64,000 nucleotides of DNA, from the NCBI GenBank assembly GCA_051531975.1, contig JAOPTT010000010.1, positions 96,001-160,000 on the forward strand, written 5' to 3'. Source of the DNA: Spirochaetaceae bacterium. GTDB lineage: Bacteria; Spirochaetota; Spirochaetia; DSM-2461. The notes beneath the pieces were generated by a model. That model worked only from the letters and a program-made list of their open reading frames with translations, did not search any database and was not told where the DNA came from. Shown one piece after another: positions 2,347 through 22,353 of the stretch. Positions within the stretch are counted from its first letter, which is position 1; each line of letters begins with the position of its first letter. The translations under genes were made by a program, and so were the position numbers.

Positions 2347-2687
2347 AAATTGAAGGTGATATCTATTTAGTATGGTATAAAGATAACGACCATATTATAC
2401 ATTTTGAGGGTTCATTAAGGTTATGGGACCCTGGAGAATATGGCAGAATAAAACAGTATATGCTTGATATATATGAACTTGATACTAAAACCCTTTCTAT
2501 AGATTTAACAAAATTAGAGTTTTTAAACAGTTCAGGAATAAGTATGTTGTGCAAATTTGTATTTGATATTAAAAAAGGTAACCAGCTTCCAATAATTATA
2601 ATTGGTAAAAAAGATATATTATGGCAAAGAAAATCTCTGCATAATCTAAAAAAATTATGGGATAAAATTGAGTTAAAGTTAATATAA
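2340..2687 (+). CDS. STAS-like anti-anti-sigma protein (slr1659-like)
   Basis: IDLTKLEFLNSSGI phosphoacceptor motif and WQRKSL. Overlaps the kinase gene. Confidence 0.8.
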   Translation: MLKIEGDIYLVWYKDNDHIIHFEGSLRLWDPGEYGRIKQYMLDIYELDTKTLSIDLTKLEFLNSSGISMLCKFVFDIKKGNQLPIIIIGKKDILWQRKSLHNLKKLWDKIELKLI

Positions 2688-2733
2688 TAAAACTTTAATA
2701 CAATATTATCACCATCAGTATTTTATAAAAATT

Positions 2734-4497
2734 TTATGGTAAAGCTGTAAAAAAGTCTGCAGAAACTATATCTCTGTTAATATTTTTAATTAATATATTT
2801 ACAGTTTTACCACTATCAGAAAATATCAATTGCCTATCTGTACCAGAAGGAGTTGTCTGATTAGTAATAATATTGTCTCGTATAGTATCAGATATAATTA
2901 TTCCAGAAATTGTTAGCTTTAATATATCAGTCTCAGCAAGTCTATTAAAATCCCATATAATATCGGTGCTTGAAGATCCAGCATCATCAATTTCAAATAC
3001 AAAAGTATCATCACCATCTAGTCCAAATAGGTCGTCATCTCCACCTTGTCCATCAATTATATCATTTCCTGAACCAACACCATCTAAAGTACCAATCTGG
3101 GAACTAAAAATATTTGATAAGACACCATTAACATAGTCATATAACAGTCCTGAGGAATCTTCCCAAAGTAAAAAATCTGTAGTTCCATCTGTACCATCAC
3201 CACCTTGTCCGTAGCCTCCACTAGCCATATTGTATAATGGTGTACTTATATTTATAGGTTGATTTGAACTATTTAGACCGCCAAAACCGGCACCTCCACC
3301 AGCTCCAAAAGCATTATTTCCAGTTCCACCTAGAGATTGTTCAGTAAAATAACCTGATCCATTATTATATGGAATAGCACTATGCCCACCCCACATTTTA
3401 TCATTTGAAGCAGTTCCACCAATAGGTTTACTTGTAACACCACCATCAAAACCACCAAATAAAGAAGTTCCAGCAGTAGTACTCGATTGAGCACCTCCTC
3501 CACCAGCAAGAAGCCCCCCAATACCACCATTACCTTGTGGGGATGCATTAGAACCGCCGCCACCGCCACCGCCTCCGAAGCCTCCATTAGCTCCATTATA
3601 ATCACCTACACCAAGACCAGAAGTACCATTAAATCCATCACCAAATATTATATCGTTTCCGCTACCACCAAAAATGATATCAGAACCAGAACCTGCTGTT
3701 CCACCAGGAGAGACACGATATTGCTCACCGCCTCCACCTCCACCACTTCCATCTCCGAATATTACATCGTTTCCAGAACTAGCAGTAATAACATCGTCAC
3801 TTCCACCACCATTACCACCAGCGGCATCGCTGCTGTAGTCTGTACTATAATCTCCAGAACCACCACTTCCACTTCCATCACCAGCATAATATCCTATTGC
3901 TGTTCCCCAAATTGAATATAAAATGATGTTATTAGCCGGCATTAAAAATGGTGGTGTTATAACACTCCCATCAGAAGTCAGGGACCAACCACTAAAAAAG
4001 TGACCAGTAAAAGCTATACCTGATCCATCATTTAAAGTTATTTCGGCACCTTCTAAATATGCTGTACTATCAACTGGTAAACTTCCAGTTCCACCATTTA
4101 GATCATATGTAATGCTATATGTATCTATTTCTATAGCTATAGCTGAAACATTAATAATGACATTATTACTTCCAGTACTTATATCAACTGTAGTTTCACC
4201 AGTGTATAACAATACGGATCTATCTAAATTATATAAATTCAATACAAATTTTCGATCAGTTCCTAATAAAACATCTACAGAAATGAACTCAACCTGAGTA
4301 GTTATTGTAATATCATCAAAATCTGATGCAGAAACTATTAATTCATATAAATAAGCATCGTCGGTTATAGCTCTAGATGATGGTAACGTTAAGTTTATAG
4401 TAGAAAATTTAGAATTATTATCAGATGAAAAAAGTTCACAACCTGCTATTAATAATATAAATATTAAAGATACAAAAAAAATCTTTTTCATAATCAC
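2734..4497 (-). CDS. Surface lipoprotein with InlB B-repeat-like domain and Gly-rich RTX-like Ca-binding repeats
   Basis: Lipobox LIAGC. YSITYDLNGGTG...FSGWS...LYSIW repeat unit. GNDVIFGDG, GNDIIFGDG, GNDIIDGQGGDDDLFGLDGDDTFVF nonapeptide-like repeats. Confidence 0.7.
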   Translation of the reverse strand: MIMKKIFFVSLIFILLIAGCELFSSDNNSKFSTINLTLPSSRAITDDAYLYELIVSASDFDDITITTQVEFISVDVLLGTDRKFVLNLYNLDRSVLLYTGETTVDISTGSNNVIINVSAIAIEIDTYSITYDLNGGTGSLPVDSTAYLEGAEITLNDGSGIAFTGHFFSGWSLTSDGSVITPPFLMPANNIILYSIWGTAIGYYAGDGSGSGGSGDYSTDYSSDAAGGNGGGSDDVITASSGNDVIFGDGSGGGGGGEQYRVSPGGTAGSGSDIIFGGSGNDIIFGDGFNGTSGLGVGDYNGANGGFGGGGGGGGSNASPQGNGGIGGLLAGGGGAQSSTTAGTSLFGGFDGGVTSKPIGGTASNDKMWGGHSAIPYNNGSGYFTEQSLGGTGNNAFGAGGGAGFGGLNSSNQPINISTPLYNMASGGYGQGGDGTDGTTDFLLWEDSSGLLYDYVNGVLSNIFSSQIGTLDGVGSGNDIIDGQGGDDDLFGLDGDDTFVFEIDDAGSSSTDIIWDFNRLAETDILKLTISGIIISDTIRDNIITNQTTPSGTDRQLIFSDSGKTVNILIKNINRDIVSADFFTALP

Positions 4498-5969: not shown

Positions 5970-6341
5970 TTAATCTATAACTTTAATATTATAGGGGAAT
6001 TGGAAATCTTCCAGTAGATCTTCCCCTGTCTCTTTTGCTACTTCGTTATCAGCATTATATAACCAGTTTACAGATACTTTTTTACCTTTTTTAAAAGCCT
6101 CTTCTAATATATCAAAAAGATAAAACATAGCTTTAGTACTACTAGTATTAAGATACAATAACCGGACATTCAGTTCAAAAATTATACCTTCCTTCTCTAA
6201 ATATTCCTCTACCCAGGTTATTACTGGTTCATAAAAATTACTTGAGTTTTCTGGATATGATTGTCCATCAATAGTAAACAGTCTGTTTTCTTCGTCAAAA
6301 AGTATTCGTGGTGTCGATTTTCCTACTGCTATATCTATCAT
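5970..6341 (-). CDS. siaC: SiaC family (DUF1987) STAS-like phosphoprotein
   Basis: TPRILFD, GQSYPENSSNFYEP, YLNTSSTK (phospho-Thr motif) and VNWLY. Confidence 0.9.
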   Translation of the reverse strand: MIDIAVGKSTPRILFDEENRLFTIDGQSYPENSSNFYEPVITWVEEYLEKEGIIFELNVRLLYLNTSSTKAMFYLFDILEEAFKKGKKVSVNWLYNADNEVAKETGEDLLEDFQFPYNIKVID

Positions 6342-8374
6342 TTGTCTTCCTTCAATTTAAACCCCATAAGAGTAATATCATCTCTCTGACTATAGCCATC
6401 TTGAAAGTCTGCTAAATCTTTTTGGAGGGTATCTAAGTAACTATTCATGTTTTTACCAGTAGCTTTTTTAAGAGCTGCTAAATATCTTTTCCACCCAAAA
6501 CTAAACTCCTTTTCTCCACCACTTTGGTCTATATAACCATCAGTAGTAAAGTGAAAAGACATTCCCCTCTGGATATCTATTTGTTGTGTTGTATATACAT
6601 AATCATACTTTGATCTTTTATAACCAACACCTTGTTTGTCACCTTTATATTCAACTATGTCCCCATTTAAAAGGGTAAATAGTCTAATTTTTGATCCTGA
6701 GAATTGTAGAGATTTTGTATCACTATTATAGATACAAAGCCCAATATCAAGACCATCATCTTTTATTTCATATATATTATCCTGGGACAGTACTTGTTTA
6801 AGTAGTCTATTAAGATTAGATAATATAACACCTGGATCATCACTATTTATATGCTGTACAATTCTCTCTAACTGAGATTTTGCAGACATTGTTAATAGCG
6901 CCCCTGGTACACCATGACCAGTACAATCTATAACAGCGGCAATAAAACCATTATCTTTTTTCATTATCCAGTAAAAATCACCACCTACAACATCTTTTGG
7001 TTTCCAGTCAAGATAATGATCAAAAAATATCTCATCTAGTTGTGCCTTAGATGGTAAGATAGAGTTCTGAATCAAAGCAGCATACTCTATACTCTGCATT
7101 ACTTCCCTGTTCTTAACTTTTAACTCTTTAGTACGATCTTCAACTTTATGTTCCAAAGTTTCATTTAGTTCAAGGTTCACACTATAAGATTTTTCTAAAG
7201 AGGTATGAGTCTGGGCAAAACGTTTACCTAATATTACAGTAAAAGTTATAACCAAGAGGAAAAAACCTTCACCAATAAACGGTGATTTAGCTAATATACC
7301 CATGAAACATAACATACTGTATACAAAAGAAACTGACAGTAAAAGAATACCCACAAGCATAGTTTTTGAGTAAAAAAACTTAAGTTTAATAGCTCTAATT
7401 GAGACAAAAACGAGGTAAAATACTACTAAGATGTAGCTAAAGTTGAAACCATTATATAAATATTTACCAAAATTAAAAATTTGACCTGTAAAGAGATATT
7501 CAACTAAAATGAAAGAAGTCATGAACAAATATAATCCAATAAATATTTTTGCTCCAAGTTTTAGTTTTAGGTTATAAAACGAATGGATGAATAAAATAGG
7601 GAACATATACATATTTACTCCACCAACAAATGTTATAACCCAATATCCCCATGCTTTATCAATTAAATAATAGGCTAGACCATAATATCCAATGGTAAAT
7701 AATGCTACAGATAAACTGAAACCTGAGATGTATAGGTTGTATCGTTCTTGTTTTCTATATAAATACATTATAAAGAAATATAGAGCAAGGAAAAGACTAA
7801 CAAATGAGATAGCTGAATTTTTAATAACATATATTATCCAGTTTTGCTGTAATTCTTTATAATTACCTATCTTAACAAAACCACTAAAACCACCAACAGA
7901 ACTAAAACTACCAGCTTTAATTAATAGTGAATTTTCTCCAGTGTTTATAAGGCTATTACTAAGTTTTAAAGCTATAGGTTTGTGACCAAATTTATTATAT
8001 CCATTATATATTAAATTGTTATTAAGGTATAACTCATATCCTCCATAACTTAATGGAATGTATACCCCAAGTTCTTCATTTATTACATCAGGACTAAGGA
8101 TAAAAGAAATTTGATACCATGCATCCCCATAATGAGTTGCTAATTCTGGAATTGAATACTTCCATGGACTTGCTGTGGATATAGAAAACCAGTCATCATA
8201 GTTTATATTATCCATTTCATTATATTCTTTATCTTCTATTGAGAAGTTCCACTCAGTATTTAAACTGTAGACTTTATTATAGTCATCAACTAGTAGTGGT
8301 TTTACACTTTCTGCATATGTAGACAATGAGCATAAAGTTATTAGTAATATTATAACATGATTTCTGATTTTCAT
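6338..8374 (-). CDS. SiaA-like sensor phosphatase: extracellular jelly-roll + 7TM-DISM-like + PP2C/SpoIIE
   Basis: Signal peptide, SLNTEWNF...GDAWYQISF beta domain and about 7 TM helices. SIEYAALIQNSILP, PKDVVGGDFYW, DCTGHGVPGA, TDGYIDQ and QRDDIT motifs. Confidence 0.88.
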   Translation of the reverse strand: MKIRNHVIILLITLCSLSTYAESVKPLLVDDYNKVYSLNTEWNFSIEDKEYNEMDNINYDDWFSISTASPWKYSIPELATHYGDAWYQISFILSPDVINEELGVYIPLSYGGYELYLNNNLIYNGYNKFGHKPIALKLSNSLINTGENSLLIKAGSFSSVGGFSGFVKIGNYKELQQNWIIYVIKNSAISFVSLFLALYFFIMYLYRKQERYNLYISGFSLSVALFTIGYYGLAYYLIDKAWGYWVITFVGGVNMYMFPILFIHSFYNLKLKLGAKIFIGLYLFMTSFILVEYLFTGQIFNFGKYLYNGFNFSYILVVFYLVFVSIRAIKLKFFYSKTMLVGILLLSVSFVYSMLCFMGILAKSPFIGEGFFLLVITFTVILGKRFAQTHTSLEKSYSVNLELNETLEHKVEDRTKELKVKNREVMQSIEYAALIQNSILPSKAQLDEIFFDHYLDWKPKDVVGGDFYWIMKKDNGFIAAVIDCTGHGVPGALLTMSAKSQLERIVQHINSDDPGVILSNLNRLLKQVLSQDNIYEIKDDGLDIGLCIYNSDTKSLQFSGSKIRLFTLLNGDIVEYKGDKQGVGYKRSKYDYVYTTQQIDIQRGMSFHFTTDGYIDQSGGEKEFSFGWKRYLAALKKATGKNMNSYLDTLQKDLADFQDGYSQRDDITLMGFKLKEDK

Positions 8375-8390
8375 TGTAACTTCCTATTTT

Positions 8391-8597
8391 TTAGTAATAA
8401 AACCCTATTTTTGTAGTCTTCATATCTTCTTTGTTATCTACAAGTTTTTTACTATCATCTTCAGAGACATCATAACCTTTATCCTGAAACCAAGATGCAA
8501 CTGTTTTGTGGTCACTACTATCAACAACTTTGAGTAATTCTTCACCAATAGTGGTGTCTTTTGCAGCATCTGCAATAAAATCAATAAAATTTTTCAT
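8391..8597 (-). CDS. Putative RiPP precursor 1, Nif11-like leader, C-terminus KIGFYY
   Basis: 68 aa with GAAGGA RBS and its own promoter. Paralogous to 9235..9441. Helical F-x-x-x-x-x-x-D/N leader pattern and GY[D/S][V/I] motif resemble Nif11-type leaders. Confidence 0.7.
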   Translation of the reverse strand: MKNFIDFIADAAKDTTIGEELLKVVDSSDHKTVASWFQDKGYDVSEDDSKKLVDNKEDMKTTKIGFYY

Positions 8598-8634
8598 TCA
8601 AATTCCTTCATTTTTGATTTAATACGGTTTTTTA

Positions 8635-8663
8635 ATTTTAAGAGATATTAGACTTACTGTCAA
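8635..8663 (-). promoter_or_regulatory. Sigma70-type promoter of precursor 1 - siaA - siaC
   Basis: Minus strand TTGACA (8663-8658), 17-nt spacer, TAAAAT (8640-8635). Confidence 0.75.
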
Positions 8664-8682
8664 ACTTTTAATTGAATACTTA

Positions 8683-9207
8683 TTATTTGATATATATCCC
8701 ATACATTATGAAATCAACTGAAGAATTACCATAGGATATCCATGCAAAACCTTTTATCCCCCACAACCTACCCCATGAGTTTTTAATAAGCCATGCCTGC
8801 TTTTCATCATCATACCCAATTACTGTTACCGCATGACCACCAAATGATTTTCCAAATCTATGTCTGTATATACCTTTTCTATAAAATATTAGATCTAATC
8901 TGAAGTTCAGTATGGATAATAATGGACCTTTGCTATCAAGCCACTCTTTCATTTTTATCTGTTTATCCAGAGCTGTATAATCTGTTATTATTTTTTTATC
9001 CTTTAATAAAGTAAGAGTCTGATAGATATTATTTGCACTAGTAGGATATTTTTTAAGAAACTGTCTTTCCGATATTAGGCAGTATTTACCTGTTTTTTTA
9101 AATTTTAAAATCTCAAGGTTTGCTAAAACTGCATAGACTATACATACAGATCTGAAGCCTTGATTTTTTATTGGTAGATCTGGAAATTTATTATTAAGAA
9201 TAGGCAT
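8683..9207 (-). CDS. Minimal papain-like (C1A) cysteine peptidase
   Basis: NQGFRSVC (Gln/Cys), GGHAV (His) and KNSWG (Asn). No signal peptide or propeptide. Confidence 0.8.
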
Positions 9208-9234
9208 AGTAAACTCCCAGATTTATATTTTGGA

Positions 9235-9441
9235 TTAGTAATATAACCCTATTTTTTGTGATGCTATAGAGTCTTTATTCATCATGATCTTTTCACACTC
9301 ATCTTGGTTGATTGAATAACCCTGATTCTCAAACCATGTTGAAATCTCTGTGATGTTTGAACCCACAATCTTGTTGTTTAATTCTGTTGCCATACTCTCG
9401 TTTTTTGCTGCGTCTGCAACAAAATCAATAAAATTTTTCAT
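9235..9441 (-). CDS. Putative RiPP precursor 2, Nif11-like leader, C-terminus KIGLYY
   Basis: 68 aa with AAGGAG RBS. Starts MKNFIDFVADAAK and ends KIGLYY, like 8391..8597. Confidence 0.7.
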   Translation of the reverse strand: MKNFIDFVADAAKNESMATELNNKIVGSNITEISTWFENQGYSINQDECEKIMMNKDSIASQKIGLYY

Positions 9442-9470: not shown

Positions 9471-9499
9471 ATATTAGTGTTGTAACTCTTTACTGTCAA
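9471..9499 (-). promoter_or_regulatory. Sigma70-type promoter of precursor 2 - peptidase
   Basis: Minus strand TTGACA (9499-9494), 17-nt spacer, TAATAT (9476-9471). Confidence 0.7.
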
Positions 9500-9516: not shown

Positions 9517-9552
9517 ATAACCCTATAACCCTATAACCCTATAACCCTATAA
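9517..9552. repeat. 8-bp tandem repeat (ATAACCCT) x4.5
   Basis: Four perfect units at 9517-9548 plus ATAA, in the divergent intergenic region. Confidence 0.95.
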
Positions 9553-9642: not shown

Positions 9643-10656
9643 ATGTTATCTATAGAAGTAACAACAAAATGTAATTTACGATGTATTAATTGTTTTGCCC
9701 ATGATTCCTCCCATGTATTTGAACATCTTGGACTTAAGAAAGCAGAAGAGATAGCTCTTGAGGGTCGAGTTTTAGGTTATAAATCTATCAGTCTTACAGG
9801 TGGTGAGACCTTTTTGTGGCCTTATATACTCGGTTTTTTAACTTACCTTAAAAGTATTGGATATGAAACAATATTGATAAATAGTAACTTACACCTATTA
9901 ACTGAAGAGTTATGTAACAAACTGTCTAAATTTACTGATCTGTTGACCATTAGTTGTAGTATTAATGGATTTAAAGATGAACACGAAATTGTTAGAGGGA
10001 TTGGAAGTTACGATAAAGTAATTACAGGATTAAAAAATGCTATAACGTACGGTTTAAAAATGATTGTATATACAGTCGTTAATAGAAGAAACTTATATGA
10101 TATTCCTAAATTTACTGAGTGGTTATTTAAACAGTTCCCAGAAATTATAGATCTAGTTTTTATACAGTTAAGAGGAATAGACGACGGTTACTACCAGGTA
10201 GAAGACCTTAAACTAGAACCAAAAGATTTAATTGAGTTTGTTAAAATGATCAGCTATTTAAGTCTTGGTGGATATAATGTAAGCATATTAGAGAACTCAT
10301 TATCTACTGTTGTTGCAGAGATGCTTGGTTTTAAGTGGTATCCTAAGAGTCCAGAGATATCTAGAGATGGCAAAATAGTTGTAATGCAAACTGGGGTTAT
10401 TACAGATAATCACTCCAGTTTAGAAATATTAGGGAACTATAACAATCAATCCCTTAAAGATGTATTAGAATCAAAAGAATATAGAGAATTATGTGTAGAC
10501 GAGTCTAAATTATGTATAGGTTGTAAATTTATTTCAATATGTAGAAAGTCCGGTAAAGTGAGACCATCAGATATGTATCATAATACTGGAGACAGTGATT
10601 ATTACTACTGTCAAAAAGTATTAAGTCAGATAACCCAAGGAGTTATAAATGAATGA
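9643..10656 (+). CDS. Radical SAM enzyme with partial SPASM-like C-terminus
   Basis: CNLRCINC (CX3CX2C), LTGGE and C-terminal CIGCKFISIC...YYYC. Confidence 0.88.
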   Translation: MLSIEVTTKCNLRCINCFAHDSSHVFEHLGLKKAEEIALEGRVLGYKSISLTGGETFLWPYILGFLTYLKSIGYETILINSNLHLLTEELCNKLSKFTDLLTISCSINGFKDEHEIVRGIGSYDKVITGLKNAITYGLKMIVYTVVNRRNLYDIPKFTEWLFKQFPEIIDLVFIQLRGIDDGYYQVEDLKLEPKDLIEFVKMISYLSLGGYNVSILENSLSTVVAEMLGFKWYPKSPEISRDGKIVVMQTGVITDNHSSLEILGNYNNQSLKDVLESKEYRELCVDESKLCIGCKFISICRKSGKVRPSDMYHNTGDSDYYYCQKVLSQITQGVINE

Positions 10657-12397: not shown

Positions 12398-13056
12398 TGG
12401 AAAAAGTTGTAAATGATAAAAAAATATGGGATGAGATATACGAAAAAGAGAACTTTACACCTGGATGGGGAAGCCCAGGTTTGGATAATAATATAGTTAC
12501 CTATGTAAAAGCTTATATAAATGAGTACAAACTTAAATCATTGTCCATATTAGATATTGGTTGTGGTAATGGTAGAAATTCCTTTGTAAAAGAGGAGCTG
12601 GAGAAAGATGGAGTTATTGTAGATTATACAGGTGCTGATTTTTCAGAGAAAGCTCTGACATACTGTAGGGAAACTTATACAGATAAAGAGTTTATACATC
12701 TTGATATTACTGATAATAACCTTCCTTTAAAAGAGAGTTATGATGTTATTATTGACTGTGGTTGTTTCCACGCTATTCCACCTGAAGTTCGTATTAAATA
12801 CATAGATAATGTAAAAAAACATTGCTCAGATAGTAGTTTATTAATTATTGGTGCATGGTACCGGGAAGAGAAACATACAGAAGTAGATAAACCTTCATAC
12901 TTTCCCTACCTCTATTTAGACGAATGGTTTCTTAATAGAAGTGATATGACCCAGATATTTAATAATAAGTTTAATGTTATATCTGAGCTTGTTGATAACA
13001 GGATATATGAAGGTTTAAACAAAGGCTTCGCATATTTTAGATTAAGACTTTGTTAA
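12397..13056 (+). CDS. Class I SAM-dependent methyltransferase
   Basis: ILDIGCGNGRN, GADFS and YDVIIDCGCFH. Translationally coupled (TAATG) to the rSAM gene. Confidence 0.9.
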   Translation: MEKVVNDKKIWDEIYEKENFTPGWGSPGLDNNIVTYVKAYINEYKLKSLSILDIGCGNGRNSFVKEELEKDGVIVDYTGADFSEKALTYCRETYTDKEFIHLDITDNNLPLKESYDVIIDCGCFHAIPPEVRIKYIDNVKKHCSDSSLLIIGAWYREEKHTEVDKPSYFPYLYLDEWFLNRSDMTQIFNNKFNVISELVDNRIYEGLNKGFAYFRLRLC

Positions 13057-13947
13057 TGGTGGTATAACTCCGGTTATACCCCACATCTCAGAATCTACAC
13101 CACACTCTCCATACTTAATCCAGAAGTAACCACTCTCTCCCCAGCTTTCACCCCAGGAGTTTTTACATAACCAAGCCTCTTTATCATCTGAATAACCAAC
13201 TATAGTTATGCAGTGACCTCCAAGTTCTGGTCCTAATATAGGGCTATAGATTCCTTCTCCATAAAAAAGAAAGTCCGCTCTTAAACTCATAGCACCGATA
13301 AGTGGGCCATTAGTAAATATCCAGCTTTTCATTTCCTCTTCAGTAGTTAGTGTTTTATAACCTTTTATTTTTGTAACCCTATTCTGCCATCCCGTCGACA
13401 GAGCTTTATCCTTATCGTCAGTATCGTAGGGAAACTCTTTTTCAGTTACAACTCCAGTATTAACTAGATAGTTTAGAGCATCTTCCACAGGCCAACCTGT
13501 TTTACAGTTATGGGTACTCGGTGTATCTTCTGGAGAAAACCCAGGGCTCTTAAAAAACAACTGACCTTCAGAGAGATTTATATCCACATTATGTTCAATT
13601 TTTGCCATACTCTCTGTAACTGCTAATGAACCAAAGGCTGCACAGGAACTGCAAAACCCCTGGTTTTTAACAGTTGCCATATAATTTTTACCCTTTTTAT
13701 TTAACCAGTTAAAACTTTTAGGGTAGTCTACTGTAATTATTTTAGTATCCTTCAGATGTTTAATATGGTTTTCCCTAGAAATTTCTACCCTTTCATCTAA
13801 TGATAACGTACTTTCTGTGGTTCTAAATCCAGCTAAACTCTTTAACTCTTCAAAAAGTATACCTGTAAAAAGGTTTAATGAAGGTGTCCACTGGGGTTTC
13901 TCTAACTTTGATAATTCTTTAAAAAATAACTCGTCTAATATACTCAT
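13042..13947 (-). CDS. Papain-like (C1A) cysteine peptidase, cytoplasmic
   Basis: VKNQGFCSSCAAF, NLSEGQL, GGHCITIVGY and KNSWGESWGESGYFWIKYG. No signal peptide. Confidence 0.92.
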   Translation of the reverse strand: MSILDELFFKELSKLEKPQWTPSLNLFTGILFEELKSLAGFRTTESTLSLDERVEISRENHIKHLKDTKIITVDYPKSFNWLNKKGKNYMATVKNQGFCSSCAAFGSLAVTESMAKIEHNVDINLSEGQLFFKSPGFSPEDTPSTHNCKTGWPVEDALNYLVNTGVVTEKEFPYDTDDKDKALSTGWQNRVTKIKGYKTLTTEEEMKSWIFTNGPLIGAMSLRADFLFYGEGIYSPILGPELGGHCITIVGYSDDKEAWLCKNSWGESWGESGYFWIKYGECGVDSEMWGITGVIPPLTKS

Positions 13948-14028: not shown

Positions 14029-14868
14029 ATGAAGAAATATATAATAATATTGTCACTATTAATTACACTTTTTTCATGTTCCAAATTTAGTAAACAACTG
14101 TATCAAGAACATGAAATGGTATTGGTTGAACCTGGTTCCTTTATTATGGGCTCAGATTCTGGGAAAGAGAACGAAAAGCCAGCCCACAAAGTTAAAATAA
14201 CAAGAGCATATTATATAGGTGTTTATGAAGTCACCTTTAATCAGTACGATGCTTATACACTGGAAACTAAAAGGAAATCTGCAGACCCAACTATTAAAGA
14301 TAGAGGGCAAAGACCTGTAATGAGTGTGGACTGGATACAAGCTGTAACCTACTGTAACTGGTTAAGTAAAAAAGAGGGATTCACCCCTTGTTATATAGTA
14401 AAAGGTGTAAAAACAACATGTAATTTTGAAGCCGATGGTTATAGATTACCAACTGAAGCAGAGTGGGAATTTGCAGCCTCTGGGGGGAATAAAAGCAAAG
14501 GATTTATATATTCCGGAAGCAATAATGTTGATGAAGTAGGATGGTATGAAAAAAACTCAAATAACGATTTTTATAATATAGGACTTAAGAAACCTAACGA
14601 ATTAGGACTGTACGATATGTCAGGGAACATGTGGGAATGGTGTTGGGATTATTGGGATAAAGATTATTATAAATATTCACCATCCATAGATCCAACAGGG
14701 CCATTAACAATACCGAAACAGGACATGGCATATAATGTGGAAAAATCCAGGCGTAGCTCCAGATGGTTAAATACAGAATTTTATCTGAGAGTTTTTAACC
14801 GTTCAGCAGACTTCATAAATTATGAGGGAGATAATGGAATACGTCTTGTAAGAAGTAAAGTTAATTAA
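14029..14868 (+). CDS. FGE-sulfatase (SUMF1-fold) domain lipoprotein
   Basis: Lipobox LFSC. GSFIMGS, YEVTFNQY, YRLPTEAEWEFAA and NELGLYDMSGNMWEWCWD. Confidence 0.88.
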   Translation: MKKYIIILSLLITLFSCSKFSKQLYQEHEMVLVEPGSFIMGSDSGKENEKPAHKVKITRAYYIGVYEVTFNQYDAYTLETKRKSADPTIKDRGQRPVMSVDWIQAVTYCNWLSKKEGFTPCYIVKGVKTTCNFEADGYRLPTEAEWEFAASGGNKSKGFIYSGSNNVDEVGWYEKNSNNDFYNIGLKKPNELGLYDMSGNMWEWCWDYWDKDYYKYSPSIDPTGPLTIPKQDMAYNVEKSRRSSRWLNTEFYLRVFNRSADFINYEGDNGIRLVRSKVN

Positions 14869-14983
14869 CAATTTATATAATATCCTTTATAGATATAATT
14901 AGATTAATGAAATACAATTCATCTTGGATATCTCACTTAAGATGCTCCGGTTTTGCCTAGTAATTAATATTAACGGAGAAATA

Positions 14984-16174
14984 ATGAAAAATAGAAATTT
15001 ATGGTTCTTAATAGCTACACAATGCTTTTTTATGAGTGCTAATATGATGTTTACAACACTTGCACCAATGTTAGGAAAATCGCTACTAATAAATGTTAGT
15101 TATGCTACCCTGCCCATGGCTATGAGTATGTTATCAATGCTTATTTTCTCTTTCCCCGTAAGTATATGGATGGGGAAAAAAGGACGGGGACCAGCTTTTA
15201 AAACAGGCTTACTATCTAATATGTTAGCCGCAGTTATATTTTTTATAGCACTCCAGTCTAATCAATTTTATCTATTATTAATAGGTTCTGTTTTTTTTGG
15301 ATTCTCAATATCCACTGCAAATTTCTATAGATTTGCAGCTATGGAACTAGTACCTGAAAAAGATCAATCTAAAGCTATATCCATGGTTATGTCTGTTGGA
15401 ATAGTTGCTGCTTTAGTCGGCCCCAATTTAGGTTCTGTTACTAAAAATCTAATTTTTGATATTGATTTCTCCGCATCAGTACTTACTTTTATTCCACTAT
15501 CATTAATGAGTCTAATAATGGTTTCAAATGTAAAATGGCCGGCAATAAAAGAATTAAAAAAAGAAAACGATGATATAACCACCTTAATTGCTCCCCTTGA
15601 TATATGGAAATCTGGAACTTGGAAGCCAATTTTTGGGGCCATGGTATCATTTGGAATAATGGTTTTAATTATGAGTGCTACACCCCTACATATGTCAGCT
15701 TCTAAATATGCATTTTCTGATACTGCTTGGGTAATTCAATGGCATGTATTAGGTATGTTTGCCCCATCTTTTTTCCTTGGTTGGATAATAAAGAAGATAG
15801 GTTTAAATAGACTGCTTATATTAGGAGTAATATTTTTAATCCTCTCTATAGCTGTTAATTTAATTTCTGATAGTAGAGCCCTTTTAACTATTGGATTATT
15901 ATTCTTAGGCATAGGTTGGAACTTCCTATTTCTTGGTTCTAGTAAGTGGTTAATGAATTGTATAATACACTTAAATGTAAAGGAAAGATCTAGAGTTCAA
16001 GGTATAAACGAAGTATTAGTATACGGCTTATCATCTGCTGCAACTCTTAGTTCCGGCTGGATAATAAATAAACTAGGGTGGCAAGTACTAAATATAGTTG
16101 CACTTCCTATTTTAATACTATTATTAGGTGTATTAATTCTAAATACTTTGAAAACCAAAAAGTTAATCTTATAA
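14984..16174 (+). CDS. MFS transporter
   Basis: About 12 TM segments with NFYRFAAME and IQWHVLGMFAPSFF. ATG at 14984 follows GGAG. Confidence 0.88.
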   Translation: MKNRNLWFLIATQCFFMSANMMFTTLAPMLGKSLLINVSYATLPMAMSMLSMLIFSFPVSIWMGKKGRGPAFKTGLLSNMLAAVIFFIALQSNQFYLLLIGSVFFGFSISTANFYRFAAMELVPEKDQSKAISMVMSVGIVAALVGPNLGSVTKNLIFDIDFSASVLTFIPLSLMSLIMVSNVKWPAIKELKKENDDITTLIAPLDIWKSGTWKPIFGAMVSFGIMVLIMSATPLHMSASKYAFSDTAWVIQWHVLGMFAPSFFLGWIIKKIGLNRLLILGVIFLILSIAVNLISDSRALLTIGLLFLGIGWNFLFLGSSKWLMNCIIHLNVKERSRVQGINEVLVYGLSSAATLSSGWIINKLGWQVLNIVALPILILLLGVLILNTLKTKKLIL

Positions 16175-16250
16175 AATTATTCCCATATAAATTAGCAACT
16201 TTAAGTAAAATGATTGTTTTCCCTATAGATTGAACCTAAACTTTTTATAT

Positions 16251-16580
16251 ATGGACAGTGAAATAGATGAAATTCTGGAAGTTGAAAGAAAAGCAAAATC
16301 AATAATAGATGATGCAAGAGCGAAATCCCTCAAAATCAGGTCTAAAGACGATATAGAGATTAGTAACAGAACAAAAAGTATTAAAGATGAAATTAATAGT
16401 TATCTGAAAACAGAATCAAAAAATGCAAAAATAGAAAGTTCCAAGGAACATCAATTAAAAATAGAAGAGGTTGAATCCACTATTCTATTTGATACAGTAC
16501 CTAAAAAAATAAAAGATAAATTAATAAATGATATAATATCTATAATTCTTGATACCACATTTAAGATGGTGGAGAGATGA
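16251..16580 (+). CDS. V/A-type ATPase peripheral stalk subunit G/H-like
   Basis: Charged coiled coil (EILEVERKAKSIIDDAR). First gene of the ATPase operon. Start is uncertain. Confidence 0.6.
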   Translation: MDSEIDEILEVERKAKSIIDDARAKSLKIRSKDDIEISNRTKSIKDEINSYLKTESKNAKIESSKEHQLKIEEVESTILFDTVPKKIKDKLINDIISIILDTTFKMVER

Positions 16581-17608
16581 TAAATAGTAAATTTATTAAT
16601 TCAAAACTAAAAGCAAAAATGAGCCTTATGTTAACAAAGGAATTTTTTAATATATTAAGCCGTTCCAACTCCTTAGAAGAAGGTATCCAGATGTTAAGGG
16701 GAACAGACTTTGACATCTTAACCAGGAATTATATGCTTACAGGTGATCTTAAAATGGGAGAACTGGAACTCTTTAAAAAACAGATAAAGTTTTATACAGA
16801 ACTTGAACCATTTTACCCTACAAGTTTTAAACCTCTAGTACATGCACTACTTCTAAAATATGAGATTGATGTCTTAAAATCTGTATTCAGATTGTGGTTT
16901 GATAAAAATATTAGAAAACGTGATATAGGTGGACGATTAGGTTATATATATAGAAACAGTATAATAAATAAAATACCAATAGATGAAATCTTAAACTGTT
17001 CTAGTTTAGAGAAGATAGCGCAACTTTTTGAAGATTCACCATACTATTCTCTAGTTGTTTTAGAATCTGGGAACATATTAAAATATCAATCCCTATTTTT
17101 ATTTGAAACCAGTCTGGATATTTTATACTTCAGAGAAATATTTTCAGCTATAAATAGATTAAAAAGAGAGAACAAAAAAATTGCTTTAACATATTATAAC
17201 TATGTAGTTGATGTAGAAAATATAAAATGGGCAAATAGGTTTAGAGAGTTTGATGTTTATAAAGATATAGATTTTGGTGCAATATACATCCCCTATGGGT
17301 TAATAAACAAACAGTTATATAAAAGACTTTTAAAATCTGAAGATTCTGAGTTCCTAGAACAGTTAAAAAAAAGATATAAGAAGATTAATATAAACAGAGA
17401 TGAACAGTTCCCAGTAGATAAGACAATTTACGAAATGGAACTATCTATCCAGCTTAAAATACAAAAGTTATTACATGGAGATCCATTTTCAATAGGAACC
17501 TTAATAGCATATTTTTATAAAAAACAGCTGGAAATTAGTAAAATAATTACTGTATTAAATGCAATATCCTATGAATTATCTGAAAAAAGAATAAGGGAGT
17601 TAATATGA
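16577..17608 (+). CDS. atpC: V/A-type ATPase subunit C
   Basis: NSKLKAKMS..., FETSLDILYF, VDVENIKW and DPFSIGTLIAYF. Operon position. Confidence 0.8.
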   Translation: MINSKFINSKLKAKMSLMLTKEFFNILSRSNSLEEGIQMLRGTDFDILTRNYMLTGDLKMGELELFKKQIKFYTELEPFYPTSFKPLVHALLLKYEIDVLKSVFRLWFDKNIRKRDIGGRLGYIYRNSIINKIPIDEILNCSSLEKIAQLFEDSPYYSLVVLESGNILKYQSLFLFETSLDILYFREIFSAINRLKRENKKIALTYYNYVVDVENIKWANRFREFDVYKDIDFGAIYIPYGLINKQLYKRLLKSEDSEFLEQLKKRYKKININRDEQFPVDKTIYEMELSIQLKIQKLLHGDPFSIGTLIAYFYKKQLEISKIITVLNAISYELSEKRIRELI

Positions 17609-19290
17609 TATTCCCCTTAAAAATGAGAAAAATTACAGCTATATTATTAAAAGAATATGGTGATGATATGGCAAAATCCCTTTTGGATATTGGTGTTATA
17701 GATTTTATTAACCCAGAAAATATGGAAACAAAGGATAATCTAAAATCTCTAGAATTATTAAAAGATCGAATAGATATATTTCTAAATATGATTCCTGGAA
17801 ACAAAGACAGCAAAAACTTAAGTATGGAAGATCTAACTATAATAGATTCTCCAATGGTTATTAAGTTTCTAGATACTCTAAATGATAAATTAAAACATAT
17901 TAGAAAAGAGCAAAAACAGATACAGGAAAAGATTTTATCCCTAGAAGAGATAGAGAGACAAACCAAACTAATACCTGGGGATATACCCTCTGATGCCTCA
18001 TCAGATATTGAAGAGTTAAGACAGAATCAGTTAATATTAAATGACAAAACATTAGAAACTGTAGAATCACATAAAGATGAATTATTAAAAATATCAAGGG
18101 AACTAAAGACTAATATTATATATATTCAGATTCAAACTAGTTTTGTACAAACCGATAGTACATTTATCTTTTCTGGGTGGATACCTGAGATTAATATAAA
18201 AAAACTTGAAAATAGATTAAACGACATTACATCTAATAACTACTATTTAAAATTATCAGACGAGATAGAGGACATACCTGTTGAACTCTCCTCCCCAGGT
18301 ATACTTAATCCATTTAAAAAAATAGTGGAGAACTACTCGCTTCCAGATTATGGAACCATAGATCCTACAATATTTACAGCCTTCACCTACATGATAATGT
18401 TTGGATTAATGTTTGCAGATGCAGGACATGGTTTTGTTATATTAACAATAGGTTTATTAGGAATAAAATTTATTAAAGGTAAATATAATCATATATATCA
18501 GTTAATGATCTGGTGTGGATTTTCAGCAATAATATTTGGAATACTTTTTGGATCATATTTTGGTATGAAATGGTTTAATCCTATCTGGTTTGATTACCAC
18601 GGAATTATCTCGGGAGAGTCCCATGGTGATTCAGAAATAAACACTATTTTTGGTGTACTTGGAGTAACCGTCTATTTTGGCATATTTGTTATATATCTTG
18701 GTCTTGTAATGAACTGGGTAAATCTATTTATTCAAAAGAGATGGATCAGACTGTTTTTTGCTAAAGAGGGAATCCTTGGTGGCTGGATATATGGAGCAGG
18801 AATATATACAGCACGTTTTTTTATAATAAATGATTACAAATCCCTACCAGATCCGGTTTTACTGTTTTTTATTATTATGTTACCTACACTTCTGCTATTT
18901 GTGAAAGCACCTCTTGAATCTAGAGATGAAAAGTTTTCAGCTAGCCTAATTACAGATTTTATAATGGACGGGATTGTACAAGTCCTTGAAATGTTTACAG
19001 GCTACCTCTCAAACACCCTATCTTTTATGAGGATTGCAGGCCTTGGAATAGCACATATAAGTCTCATGATCGCATTTTTTCAGATTGCCCAGTCAGTAAA
19101 CAATACCTTTATATCAATAATCATCCTTATATTAGGAAATGCCTTAGTAATAACACTGGAAGGACTATCAGCTGGAATACAGTCATTAAGGTTAAATTAT
19201 TATGAATTTTACTCAAAATATTTTAATGGGAAAGGTCGGGGTTTTAATCCGCTATCCCTAGGTTATATAAAAAAGAAGGAGTCAATATGA
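17605..19290 (+). CDS. atpI: V/A-type ATPase subunit I (a)
   Basis: YSLPDYGTIDPT, FGLMFADAGHG, LSNTLSFMRIAGL and IQSLRLNYYEFYSKYF. Confidence 0.93.
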   Translation: MIFPLKMRKITAILLKEYGDDMAKSLLDIGVIDFINPENMETKDNLKSLELLKDRIDIFLNMIPGNKDSKNLSMEDLTIIDSPMVIKFLDTLNDKLKHIRKEQKQIQEKILSLEEIERQTKLIPGDIPSDASSDIEELRQNQLILNDKTLETVESHKDELLKISRELKTNIIYIQIQTSFVQTDSTFIFSGWIPEINIKKLENRLNDITSNNYYLKLSDEIEDIPVELSSPGILNPFKKIVENYSLPDYGTIDPTIFTAFTYMIMFGLMFADAGHGFVILTIGLLGIKFIKGKYNHIYQLMIWCGFSAIIFGILFGSYFGMKWFNPIWFDYHGIISGESHGDSEINTIFGVLGVTVYFGIFVIYLGLVMNWVNLFIQKRWIRLFFAKEGILGGWIYGAGIYTARFFIINDYKSLPDPVLLFFIIMLPTLLLFVKAPLESRDEKFSASLITDFIMDGIVQVLEMFTGYLSNTLSFMRIAGLGIAHISLMIAFFQIAQSVNNTFISIIILILGNALVITLEGLSAGIQSLRLNYYEFYSKYFNGKGRGFNPLSLGYIKKKESI

Positions 19291-19655
19291 ATATAAAATC
19301 ATTTAAGAAGAGAGTTAGTATTAGCTTTTTTATTACAGCAGGATTTATGATAGTTTTTTCATTTTTAACACCAACTCCAGTTTCAGCAGAAACCAGTGAA
19401 AAGAGTGTTGTAGTAGCTAATGAACAAGTGGAAAATGTTATGGCAAAAAAATGGGCATTTATATCAGCAGCTATTGCTTTTGGTTTAGGTGCTATTGGTG
19501 CAGCTATTGCAATATCCAACGTTGGAGCTGCAGCTATGGGTGCCATGAGTGAAAAGCCTGAAATAGGTTCCCAGGCACTTATTTTTATAGCATTAGCCGA
19601 AGGTCTGGTTGTATTTGGATTTATTACCGCTTTAATGATACTGAGCAGGATTTAA
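19287..19655 (+). CDS. atpK: V/A-type ATPase proteolipid subunit K (c)
   Basis: Signal-like N-terminus and a single hairpin GAIGAAIAI...EKPE...ALAEGLVVFG. Confidence 0.9.
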   Translation: MNIKSFKKRVSISFFITAGFMIVFSFLTPTPVSAETSEKSVVVANEQVENVMAKKWAFISAAIAFGLGAIGAAIAISNVGAAAMGAMSEKPEIGSQALIFIALAEGLVVFGFITALMILSRI

Positions 19656-19656
19656 C

Positions 19657-19962
19657 ATGAAATATTTTGTTATTGGAGATGATGATACAGTACTTGGTTT
19701 CTCTTTAGTTGGTGTTGAAGGTATAACAGCAAAAACATCTGCCGAAGTAAAAGATGCATTTAACAGAGCTTTAAGTAATAGTAATTATGGAATAATCATT
19801 ATTACAGATAGGTGTGCTGAATTAATAAGAGAAGAGGTAAATAACTTTCTTTTTACACAAACATTTCCATTAATATTAGAAATTCAAGATAAAAACGGTC
19901 CTATTACTGGTAAACCTAGTCTAAAAGAGATTGTAGACCAGGCTATTGGAATTAAACTATGA
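19657..19962 (+). CDS. atpF: V/A-type ATPase subunit F
   Basis: VIGDDDTVLGFSLVGV, PLILEI and QAIGIKL. Confidence 0.92.
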   Translation: MKYFVIGDDDTVLGFSLVGVEGITAKTSAEVKDAFNRALSNSNYGIIIITDRCAELIREEVNNFLFTQTFPLILEIQDKNGPITGKPSLKEIVDQAIGIKL

Positions 19963-20591
19963 CAAAAGAAGAACTATCTGCAGGTATAATTGAAAAAGCT
20001 CGTATAGAAGCAGATGAAATTATATTAACTGCTGAAAAATCCTCTGGGATTAAAATAGAGAACAATGAAAAGAGATTAAACCGGCAGTTTAACGATGCAA
20101 AATTAAAAGCAGAGAAAGTTAAAAAAATCACATATTCTAAACAAGAAAAACTGACATCAATGTATATTAACCGTTACAAACTTAAGGATAGAGAAGATTT
20201 TATTGATAAAATAACTAAGGTCGTTATTGATAAAATAAATGACAAAATTCGATCCCCTGAATATATAATGCATCTGGAAAATCTAATTTTAGAGGGAGCT
20301 CTTGGACTTAATAGATCTAAAATGTATCTAAATAGTTCTAAAGAGGAGTTAAATCTTTTGTCATCTGAATCACTTAAAAATATAGGTAATAAAGCTTCTG
20401 GGATTCTTGGAGTAGATGTAGAAATATTACTTTCAAAAGATAAACCTCTGTCTACTAAAGGAATTATATTAATAAGTGAAGATGGCAGAGTCTCATACAA
20501 TAATCTTATAAAAAGTAGAATTAAGCGTAAACAGGAAATTATAAATGAGCTAATAGCAAGATCATTGGATATGGTGAACAACCATGAATGA
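19959..20591 (+). CDS. atpE: V/A-type ATPase subunit E
   Basis: N-terminal coiled coil and GIILISEDGRVSYNN. Operon position. Confidence 0.85.
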   Translation: MTKEELSAGIIEKARIEADEIILTAEKSSGIKIENNEKRLNRQFNDAKLKAEKVKKITYSKQEKLTSMYINRYKLKDREDFIDKITKVVIDKINDKIRSPEYIMHLENLILEGALGLNRSKMYLNSSKEELNLLSSESLKNIGNKASGILGVDVEILLSKDKPLSTKGIILISEDGRVSYNNLIKSRIKRKQEIINELIARSLDMVNNHE

Positions 20592-22353
20592 TAAAATAAT
20601 TGGAGTAATTAAGAGGGTAAACGGCCCTGTTATTACAGCTGAGTCTGTTACAGATGCCATGATGCTTGAACATATACAAGCTGGTGAAAATAGATTAATA
20701 GGTGAAATTGTAAAACTATCAGGGGACGAAGCATTAATTCAGATATATGAAGATACAACAGGTTTATCACCTGGAGATTTTATCTACGGTTCATCTACCC
20801 CGCTTTCAGTAGAACTTGGCCCTGGACTTTTAGGCTCCATCTTTGATGGTATACAGAGACCACTACAAGGTGAAGAAAAAAACACAAGTGACTACATAGA
20901 AAAAGGTGTGGTAATACCTCCCCTACCTAGAAAAAAGCTTTGGCACTTTATTCCAACTGTTAAACCCGGGGATAACATTTCTGAAGGTATGATAATTGGA
21001 ACTGTTAGAGAGTCTAAAAGTATAGATCATAAAATATTAATCCCCCCTTTTATAAAAGGAAAACTTATATGGCTAGTAGAAGAAGGAGATTATCACATAG
21101 AAGATGTTATTGGTCAGGTTGATAATGGTAGTGATAAAATATCAATTTTTATGAAACATAACTGGTCCATTAGAAAACCCCGTCCTGTTTCAAATAGATT
21201 AGCTTTGGAAACCCCATTAATTACTGGTCAGAGGGTAATAGATACTCTATATCCTTTAGCAAAAGGTGGAACAGTTGCAATCCCAGGTGGTTTTGGAACT
21301 GGAAAAACCATGGTTCAGCATTCTATAGCTAAAAATTGTGATGCAGATATTATAATCTATATAGGTTGTGGAGAGAGAGGAAACGAGATGACCGATGTTT
21401 TAACAAGTTTCCCTAAACTCATTGACCCTAAAACAGGTAACCCATTAATGGATAGGACAATATTAATTGCAAATACATCTAATATGCCAGTCTCAGCCAG
21501 AGAGGCAAGTATATACACAGGGGTTACAATAGCAGAATATTATAGGGATCAGGGGTTTCATGTAGCAGTTATGGCGGATTCTACTTCTAGATGGGCTGAA
21601 GCTTTAAGAGAGTTATCAGGTAGAATGGAAGAGATGCCTGCAGAAGAGGGATTCCCAGCCTATCTTCCTACAAAAATTGCACAATTTTACGAGAGAGCAG
21701 GATATATGGCAACACTATGTGGTAAGACAGGTTCTGTTACTATAATAGGTGCTGTTTCCCCTCCTGGAGGTGACTTCTCAGAGCCTGTAACACAACATAC
21801 AAAACGGTTTGTAAGATGTTTCTGGAGCCTTGATAAACAGTTGGCTTATTCAAGACACTACCCTGCAATATCCTGGCTTGATAGTTATAGTGAATATGTT
21901 AGTGAAATTACAGGATGGTGGGTAGAGAAAGCCGGAAATGGCTGGACAGATAATAGAACCACCATATTAGAACTATTAAGAAAAGAGGTAAAACTTAAAC
22001 AGATAGTAAAACTTGTAGGACCAGATGCACTACCGGACAGTCAAAGGTTTATAATAGAGGTATGTACACTGTTTAAAAATGCATTTCTTCAGCAGAATAT
22101 TTTTGATGATATAGATAGATATACCACAGTAGAGAAACAGATGAGAATGTTAGAGATTATCCTGCTTTATAATAAAAGAGGATCAGAGATAATAAAAAAA
22201 GGTATACCAATAGTTAAGATTAGAAAAATTAAAATACTTCAGGATATTATGAAGATGAGATTTACTGTGGAAAATAGTGATCTGGCCTCCCTTGATAAGA
22301 TAGAGATGCGTTTAATACGGGCTTTTGATAGGTTGGAGGGAATTCATGGATGA
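20584..22353 (+). CDS. atpA: V/A-type ATPase subunit A
   Basis: Walker [31 protein letters not shown] and [10 protein letters not shown]. Confidence 0.97.

Follow-up and report, generated by a model that had tools for sequence, protein, structure and literature searches.

A 64,000-nucleotide stretch of a Spirochaetaceae bacterium genome (GCA_051531975.1, contig JAOPTT010000010.1, forward-strand positions 96,001 to 160,000; hereafter the window) carries two small genes, A1 and A2, whose products end in a very short tyrosine-terminated tail. They lie among radical S-adenosylmethionine (SAM) enzymes, papain-type peptidases and a gene for a 7TMR-DISM receptor (Table 1). Reading of the DNA letters and open reading frames (ORFs) alone had suggested that A1 and A2 are twin precursors of modified peptides, perhaps signals. 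Comparative analysis reported here places both in a spirochaete precursor family whose hallmark is its final Tyr and whose adjoining gene encodes a related receptor in every locus that could be assessed, an arrangement that recalls peptide pheromones and their cognate sensors.

Twin precursor genes

A1 and A2 are ORFs of equal length that align without gaps (28/68 identities or 41%, 74% positives, E = 4e-23 by BLASTP), which bears out the original prediction of two 68-residue precursors alike at their ends. They share the N-terminal MKNFIDF[I/V]ADAAK (13 residues), a WF-x3-GY motif and the endings KIGFYY or KIGLYY. Gly-Gly is absent from both, and the single Gly is preceded by Ile. A Shine-Dalgarno-like GAAGGA or AAGGAG, read from the sequence, stands 7-8 nucleotides 5' of each ATG. 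Promoter-like sites precede both genes; consensus sites of this TTGACA/TATA type are not enriched in the region (18 observed, 24.9 expected). Directly upstream of the A2 site, where A2 and the radical-SAM operon diverge, the intergenic region holds tandem copies of ATAACCCT that may form a candidate regulator-binding array. An AlphaFold model of A1 (mean predicted local distance difference test score, pLDDT, 72.7) comprises helices at residues 4-13, 15-27, 30-40 and 46-63 followed by coil over the last five residues, in agreement with the proposal that these are precursor-like peptides, in which a leader that is helical and conserved ends in a variable C-terminal tail of very few residues.

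The minus-strand genes run in the order A2, mini-peptidase, A1, receptor and SiaC homologue, and the GGDEF and DUF6272 genes converge on them from the plus strand. The radical-SAM, B12 radical-SAM and methyltransferase genes diverge from A2 and are followed by the 301-residue C1 peptidase gene on the other strand. Homologues of each twin were found: P0002, 81% identical to A1, ends KIGFFY, and P0004, 72% identical to A2, ends KVGFPY, so an A2-like peptide exists elsewhere. The twin arrangement of A2 with the mini-peptidase was seen in no other genome; six of 24 other genomes of the same family carry a precursor, each in single copy. One of the same genus (G401) has the same layout around a single precursor ending NLGLLY, and neither A2 nor the mini-peptidase was found there. 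A2 and the mini-peptidase look like an add-on module of the window genome, in which one receptor, not two, adjoins the two precursors. Products derived from FYY and LYY may be two signal dialects, as had been suggested, or two inputs to that one receptor.

Table 1. Genes and sites of the precursor locus, numbered from the first nucleotide of the window (aa, amino acids; nt, nucleotides).
Feature	Position	Strand	Basis
SiaD-like diguanylate cyclase (GGDEF), 233 aa	4721..5422	+	GGDEF 146.5 bits
SiaB-like kinase (DUF6272), 182 aa	5412..5960	+	PF19788 99.8 bits; PDB 6kko_A E = 3.8e-10
SiaC-family regulatory phosphoprotein, 123 aa	5970..6341	-	PF09345 133 bits; PDB 6kko_C E = 5e-25
Receptor, 678 aa: signal peptide, ectodomain (~residues 22-190), 7TMR-DISM seven-transmembrane (7TM) bundle, PP2C/SpoIIE phosphatase (SiaA-like)	6338..8374	-	SpoIIE 65 bits; 7TMR-DISM_7TM 38.1 bits
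Precursor A1, 68 aa, ends TKIGFYY	8391..8597	-	ORF; 16 nt upstream of receptor gene
Promoter-like site before A1, TTGACA-17-TAAAAT	8635..8663	-	11/12 matches; consensus match only
Mini papain-type (C1) cysteine peptidase, 174 aa, no N-terminal signal sequence	8683..9207	-	Peptidase_C1 65.8 bits vs cut-off 20.7
Precursor A2, 68 aa, ends QKIGLYY	9235..9441	-	ORF; first gene of minus-strand operon
Promoter-like site before A2, TTGACA-17-TAATAT	9471..9499	-	Consensus match only
Perfect 8-bp tandem repeat, ATAACCCT x 4.5	9517..9552		100% matches, score 72
Radical-SAM enzyme, 337 aa, family-wide maturase candidate	9643..10656	+	Radical_SAM 64.7 bits; CxxxCxxC; C-terminal four-Cys motif
B12-binding radical-SAM C-methyltransferase, 582 aa	10649..12397	+	TIGR03975 430.3 bits vs cut-off 281.85, residues 5-544
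Class I SAM-dependent methyltransferase, 219 aa	12397..13056	+	Methyltransf_25, _31, _12 and _11 all match
Papain-type (C1) cysteine peptidase, 301 aa, no signal peptide	13042..13947	-	Peptidase_C1 144.6 bits vs cut-off 20.7
Major facilitator superfamily (MFS) transporter, 416 aa, possible exporter, weak linkage	14924..16174	+	MFS_1 77.6 bits

A precursor family with a terminal tyrosine

A fast word-index protein search returned one relative per precursor only, and the family emerged with a full HMMER search in which a profile built from four sequences (A1, A2, P0002 and P0004) was run against 1.84 billion representatives. At E <= 1e-3 it retrieved 174 cluster representatives, a lower bound for the size of the family, and 40 of these reach <= 1e-10. 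Among the best 150 of the 174, 145 are 55-100 residues long, and these end in Tyr (136) or Trp (3), that is, in 139 of 145 cases in one or the other; of 612 ORFs of at least 150 residues from the same loci, 30 (4.9%) do so. A profile confined to the leader (columns 1-58, same library size) retained 144 of the 145, with Tyr or Trp at the end of 138; the enrichment at the last position was therefore not produced by the profile. Since both ORFs belong to a conserved family, the likeness of the twins is far beyond chance, and we regard the reality of the genes and of the family as virtually certain. Neither Pfam nor NCBIfam has a model for this family, whose members appear in the source records only as “hypothetical protein”. 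A phylum-wide search found it in 64 of 401 sampled genomes, including Leptospira perolatii.

The pair of tyrosines that closes both window peptides had been put forward as the conserved element. The final Tyr is indeed the family hallmark, but the residue before it varies (Y, F, P, A, V and others, Gly and Pro among them) and the pair as such is not conserved. Of 31 family members with an [IVLM]-G tail, 27 continue for two or three residues beyond the Gly, usually starting with a hydrophobic or aromatic one, and tails with just one or two residues after Gly are common.

Four paralogues within the family lack the terminal Tyr (L045 9507-9746, L050 8471-8686, L054 7618-7944 and L056 7745-7987; L numbers denote the loci compared below) and end ...GLAI, ...EFAV or ...FLFLT[RQ]. 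The paralogue in L056 is followed by a WYL/WCX-domain protein, with no receptor after it, and that in L054 by a 325-residue ORF without a match to the receptor.

Conserved linkage to a 7TMR-DISM receptor

The neighbourhood of the family was compared across 27 further loci, comprising five named records (Leptospira perolatii included), 20 stretches from the phylum search (up to 20 kb each, some cut at contig ends) and two from the family to which the window belongs. The receptor count covers 25 loci with 26 Tyr- or Trp-ended family genes, 24 of which have enough downstream flank. In all 24 the next same-strand gene within 700 nucleotides encodes a homologue of residues 1-400 of the window receptor (E <= 2e-19), and the ectodomain itself is matched in 23. 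That a 7TMR-DISM receptor directly follows the precursor in 24 of 24 loci lends strong support to the earlier idea of a signal. Pfam domains indicate that the outputs of these receptors vary, from PP2C alone to a hybrid HisKA-HATPase-REC-PP2C protein of ~1,100 residues, a kinase with a separate REC-PP2C protein, or HisKA_3 with a LuxR-type regulator. Because the output domains vary, the constant partner of the peptide is a sensor and not a pathway, which is what a ligand-receptor pair predicts. Some genomes hold several precursor-receptor pairs, such as the two in L047. Among five relatives the receptor diverges most in its ectodomain (26-39% identity vs 39-55% for the 7TM and PP2C parts), a pattern compatible with, but not specific to, co-diversification with the peptide. 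In L005, the closest named relative, a second 7TMR-DISM protein (2462-4189, 575 residues) is fused directly to GGDEF and adjoins a C1 peptidase.

Candidate maturation enzymes and two tailoring sets

Radical-SAM modification and methylation had been proposed for the terminal tyrosines. A radical-SAM enzyme, a second radical-SAM enzyme and a methyltransferase are encoded alongside the precursors, and the second radical-SAM enzyme clearly exceeds the cut-off of the TIGR03975 family of B12-binding C-methyltransferases. In the 337-residue enzyme seven Cys (C10, C14, C17, C291, C294, C300 and C323) are invariant in 16/16 homologues, forming a CxxxCxxC motif and a C-terminal CxxCx5C...C motif; the four C-terminal Cys would be enough for one auxiliary cluster, as the motif suggests. 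With the SPASM Pfam model the enzyme reaches 17.1 bits, under the cut-off of 21.5, and it passes no curated NCBIfam model (best 66 bits, cut-off 650). Among PDB sequences only generic relatives were found, namely viperin (5e-10) and SkfB (7e-5) for this protein and CysS (4e-5) for the B12 enzyme. A homologue of the 337-residue enzyme occurs in 22 of 28 loci, the window counted (6/7 G-type and 16/21 other loci, as defined below). We consider it probable that this enzyme modifies the terminal Tyr in the manner of RiPPs, peptides that are synthesized ribosomally and modified post-translationally.

The remaining enzymes divide according to the tail. Loci in which the tail reads [IVL]-G-x(1-3)-[YW] were termed G-type and number seven (the window and six genomes); the other 21 have other tails. 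The B12 radical-SAM enzyme is present in 7/7 G-type loci, the methyltransferase in 6/7 and a C1 peptidase in 4/7, and a protein with a prenyl-synthase-like fold in 0/7. For the other tails the first three score 0/21 each, and the prenyl-fold protein is present in 17/21. The two tailoring sets are thus mutually exclusive, and each goes with one type of tail. [quoted passage not shown] Its family (L042 14528-15514 and 10 homologues in alignment A3) has no Pfam match at E <= 1e-5. Its model (pLDDT 91.5) gave 122 Foldseek matches at E <= 1e-3, the best of which are all trans-prenyl diphosphate synthases. ComQ, by which the ComX pheromone is prenylated, belongs to this fold class. No homologue lies in the window locus, and none was found at E <= 1 in the 98.5%-complete genome to which it belongs. 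Both sets would be expected to add lipophilic groups. In three loci (L009 8628-9830, L040 10342-11520 and L048 10327-11457) a gene for a flavin adenine dinucleotide (FAD)-dependent monooxygenase-like protein lies between the precursor and the radical-SAM gene and may encode a further tailoring enzyme.

A Sia-type module for cyclic di-GMP

By homology, a complete SiaABCD-like set is encoded in the window. The SiaC homologue, whose PDB match 6kko_C is the solved Pseudomonas aeruginosa protein, keeps the threonine of the LNTSS motif, and the PDB chain matched by the DUF6272 protein, 6kko_A, is the partner chain of SiaC in the same entry. The GGDEF gene occupies the same position in L005, L006, L066 and L067. 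In P. aeruginosa, SiaA dephosphorylates SiaC, which then activates the cyclase SiaD (PMC7278518).

A second set resembling a partner switch lies upstream of this module (356-2687) and consists of a cytoplasmic SpoIIE/PP2C protein (477 residues), a weaker DUF6272 protein (188 residues) and a 115-residue ORF without a Pfam match. Between the two, next to the GGDEF gene, is a gene for a Gly-rich protein of 587 residues with Listeria-Bacteroides and RTX repeats (2734-4497, minus strand). A 766-residue protein with the same Listeria-Bacteroides repeat and a Big_5 domain adjoins the precursor in L006 (227-2527, minus strand). The Gly-rich repeat protein may be a surface protein under the control of the module.

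Peptidases, transport and cluster borders

Catalytic residues are present in both C1 peptidases, together with GGH and NSWG motifs. In the mini-peptidase the Cys of KNQGfrsvC aligns with the active-site Cys of cathepsin K, and the motifs read GGHAV and KNSWG. It shares 46% identity with the 301-residue peptidase over the C-terminal portion of the latter (residues 194-291) and has no blastp match at E <= 1e-10 in the 27 related loci. The larger enzyme has dipeptidyl peptidase I and cathepsins H and B as its best PDB relatives. Papain-family enzymes classically prefer a hydrophobic residue two positions before the cut, and, with a hydrophobic residue before the Gly, cleavage after Gly would be a reasonable expectation. 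The release of a tiny C-terminal product is, in our estimate, slightly favoured.

To the right of the peptidase gene, the MFS transporter was set aside as a core component; it has no blastp homologue in any related locus, which makes its membership doubtful. An FGE-sulfatase-domain protein (14029-14868, plus strand) was likewise set aside as a core component; it is an exported lipoprotein with an LFSC lipobox. Proteins with this domain recur in L009 (3561-4565), L040 (18997-19896), L045 (4046-4975) and L050 (2998-3903), where the gene precedes a second SpoIIE protein without a 7TMR-DISM match; L009 is Leptospira perolatii, and L040 encodes a Leptospira OmpL1-type porin. A V-type ATPase operon (16230-24371) forms the right border of the cluster, and a GGDEF-EAL protein is encoded further to the right (30351-32336).

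A proposed signalling pathway and its alternatives

The analysis shows the genes, a family with an invariant Tyr, a conserved gene order, enzymes assigned to their families and a Sia module with all its members; how might these work together? In the pathway that we propose, the helical Nif11-like leader (residues 1 to ~60) would offer a very short tail, [I/V/L]-Gly plus one to three residues and always Tyr-ended, to cytoplasmic enzymes. The 337-residue radical-SAM enzyme, with its one auxiliary-cluster motif, would modify the invariant C-terminal Tyr. In the clade of the window, the TIGR03975 enzyme would then add C-methyl groups, and the class I methyltransferase a further methyl. The papain-type peptidases might cleave on the C-terminal side of the Gly, where the hydrophobic residue would occupy P2, and so free a modified tripeptide derived from FYY or LYY. 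This small hydrophobic product would leave the cell and be sensed by the ectodomain or the 7TM bundle of the 7TMR-DISM receptor, whose gene is predicted to be co-transcribed with the precursor. The PP2C domain of the receptor would dephosphorylate SiaC and thereby activate the GGDEF cyclase, raising cyclic di-GMP (c-di-GMP), and the SiaB-like kinase would oppose this.

We put the chances at about even that the locus encodes a ComX-like modified-peptide signal with its cognate receptor, following the logic of ComX, ComQ and ComP with different parts, and the odds are similarly balanced that the tail-derived product is the ligand of the adjacent receptor. A broader synthesis, which joins all the parts, is offered more tentatively and on balance may well not hold in full. 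It states that Tyr-ended peptides matured by radical-SAM enzymes are the cognate ligands of a clade of 7TMR-DISM receptors, that they serve cell-cell signalling across the spirochaete phylum, Leptospira included, in prenylated and methylated dialects, that in the window they are the input of a SiaABCD switch, and that a new radical-SAM reaction acts on the C-terminal Tyr.

Several observations weigh against the proposed pathway. All its chemical steps, the cleavage site, export and receptor binding are inferred. The synteny comes entirely from one phylum, in which related genomes are not independent, and the rapid evolution of an ectodomain often has causes other than the matching of a ligand. 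A radical-SAM homologue was not found within the fetched stretch in 6/28 loci, some of these stretches being short, and Pfam scans recognised an RRE leader-binding domain in none of the enzymes. A C1 peptidase is present in just four of the seven G-type loci and was not found anywhere in the 96%-complete genome G401, and loci without the [IVL]-G tail have no clustered peptidase at all. Because the peptidases lack a signal peptide, the product would have to get out of the cell either without help or by way of a transporter that is not linked to the locus; no exporter is conserved across the related loci, and no C39/ABC (ATP-binding cassette) transporter is present among the window ORFs scanned. 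The leader gives little help in classification. Membership of the Nif11 family, which the original prediction had left to profile comparison, was not upheld, since with PF07862 A1 scores 19.5 bits and A2 14.4 bits, both under the cut-off of 23.8, and with TIGR03798 A1 reaches 15.5 bits (cut-off 32.3) and A2 has no score. Nif11 is detected at E <= 0.01 in only 17 of 114 family members; the top Atlas clusters for the precursor are also Nif11 (score 0.80, a lead only), and, judged from these comparisons, the similarity is real but sub-threshold. The call for a structure prediction was answered in part, with a four-helix leader in the AlphaFold model but nothing at E <= 0.001 when that model was compared with the PDB by Foldseek.

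Some of these gaps would be accommodated if the modified peptide acted inside the cell, as a cytoplasmic partner of the 7TMR-DISM receptor or as the source of a prosthetic group for it. The absence of a conserved exporter and of signal peptides on precursors and peptidases fits such a role, as do the tight coupling of precursor and receptor genes (a 16-nucleotide gap in the window, the same arrangement in 24/24 loci) and the missing peptidases of the non-G loci and of G401. The receptor nevertheless keeps a signal peptide and an ectodomain, conserved together with the peptide in 23 of 24 loci, the tail is hypervariable save for its last residue, as is typical of diffusible pheromones, and lipophilic tailoring by prenyl-fold or methyl-transferring enzymes suits passage through a membrane; we consider an intracellular role unlikely. 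A somewhat smaller chance is given to a bioactive RiPP, an antibiotic or enzyme inhibitor comparable to cittilin or crocagin, beside which the sensor would merely regulate or be unrelated. The tiny aromatic C-terminal core and the methyltransferases recall the cittilin tetrapeptide (bioRxiv 10.1101/2020.05.25.114512), and TIGR03975 enzymes are typical of natural-product RiPPs. Neither an immunity gene nor a dedicated export gene is conserved, however, tails of only one or two residues after Gly are common, and a constant neighbour that is the sensor half, with outputs that vary, in 24/24 loci fits a ligand-receptor pair better than the regulator of a single pathway.

Two further readings appear very improbable, to about the same degree. 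The precursor could be the scaffold of a Tyr-derived redox cofactor such as mycofactocin or pyrroloquinoline quinone (PQQ); the C-terminal Tyr, the radical-SAM enzyme with an auxiliary-cluster motif and the peptidase resemble MftA, MftC and MftE, and one family member ends G-V-Y. The mycofactocin maturase model TIGR03962 gives only 46 bits against a cut-off of 265, though, and Pfam scans of the window and 12 loci revealed no MftB-like/RRE protein and no cofactor-dependent dehydrogenases. The penultimate residue is moreover unconstrained and can be Gly or Pro, for which reason an MftC-like Val-Tyr cross-link was rejected. A1 and A2 could instead be unmodified small helical proteins of unrelated function, adjacent to the enzymes by accident. 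Nif11 domains do occur in proteins that are not RiPP precursors. An invariant terminal residue after a variable tail, radical-SAM genes in 22/28 loci and tailoring sets that correlate with the tail type speak against this.

Comparison with known systems

Mycofactocin is built, as is proposed here, on the C-terminal Tyr of a small peptide, with a radical-SAM enzyme carrying an auxiliary cluster, which in the window a Cys motif suggests, and a peptidase that frees a tiny C-terminal product. The present system differs in that its candidate maturase falls short of TIGR03962, no RRE or PqqD-like protein is encoded in the cluster, the penultimate residue varies and the neighbours are sensors, not dehydrogenases. 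RiPPs with Nif11 or NHLP (proteusin-type) leaders resemble it in their long helical leader, to which that of A1 and A2 is weakly similar, and in the TIGR03975 enzyme, here above cut-off. Unlike them, the window peptides score under both curated leader cut-offs and lack Gly-Gly, no C39/ABC exporter accompanies them among the ORFs scanned, and the core has 1-4 residues instead of tens. A methyltransferase is involved in cittilin. Cittilins, biarylitides and crocagins share tiny C-terminal cores of three or four residues, rich in Tyr or Trp, but rely on cytochrome P450 or dioxygenase chemistry and are not known to have a linked receptor gene; no P450 is present among the window ORFs scanned. Cittilin itself is described as a tetrapeptide of three Tyr and one Ile (bioRxiv 10.1101/2020.05.25.114512).

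The literature searched, which left out many PubMed Central and all subscription papers, yielded no publication that brings 7TMR-DISM together with radical SAM and, among the papers listed, no link of SiaC, Leptospira or 7TMR-DISM to RiPP maturation. On Nif11 with a C-terminal tyrosine and radical SAM it yielded only a sponge review, and on TIGR03975 only metagenome surveys. Because the 337-residue enzyme matches no curated equivalog, its reaction at a C-terminal Tyr may be chemically new. To our knowledge, the ligands of 7TMR-DISM receptors are largely unknown. Here one such receptor lies beside a candidate ligand that is encoded by a gene, along with the enzymes that would mature it, so that the question of input becomes testable with few genes.

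A close parallel is ComQXP(A) of Bacillus, in which a small precursor gene also adjoins that of a multi-pass membrane sensor (PMC4008528, PMC5331326). As described there, a lipophilic group is placed near the C-terminus of a short peptide, as proposed here, and a variable tail follows a conserved leader; the wider spirochaete family even has an enzyme of prenyl-diphosphate-synthase fold with two DDxxD motifs. The parts differ from that account, however. What is invariant is a Tyr at the very end of the peptide, not a Trp, the constant maturase is a radical-SAM enzyme, and the receptor is a 7TMR-DISM protein and not a ComP homologue. The clade of the window moreover lacks the prenyl-fold protein and has the B12 radical-SAM methylase and a methyltransferase instead. 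A published census places comQXPA-like loci in Firmicutes only (PMC4008528). The cassette is therefore of a known type, peptide pheromone plus receptor, but its precursor family, its candidate maturase and the class of its receptor are new. Its output resembles SiaABCD of P. aeruginosa, as a PP2C phosphatase, a SiaB-like kinase, an LNTSS-bearing SiaC and a GGDEF cyclase are adjacent (PMC7278518). Unlike in that system, the SiaA-like protein here has a signal peptide, an ectodomain and 7TMR-DISM and is predicted to be co-transcribed with the precursor, and the genes form two convergent pairs, not one operon. For SiaA of the SiaABCD biofilm switch, the published account leaves the activating signal open (PMC7278518), and the locus, if our reading is true, offers a candidate for that input.

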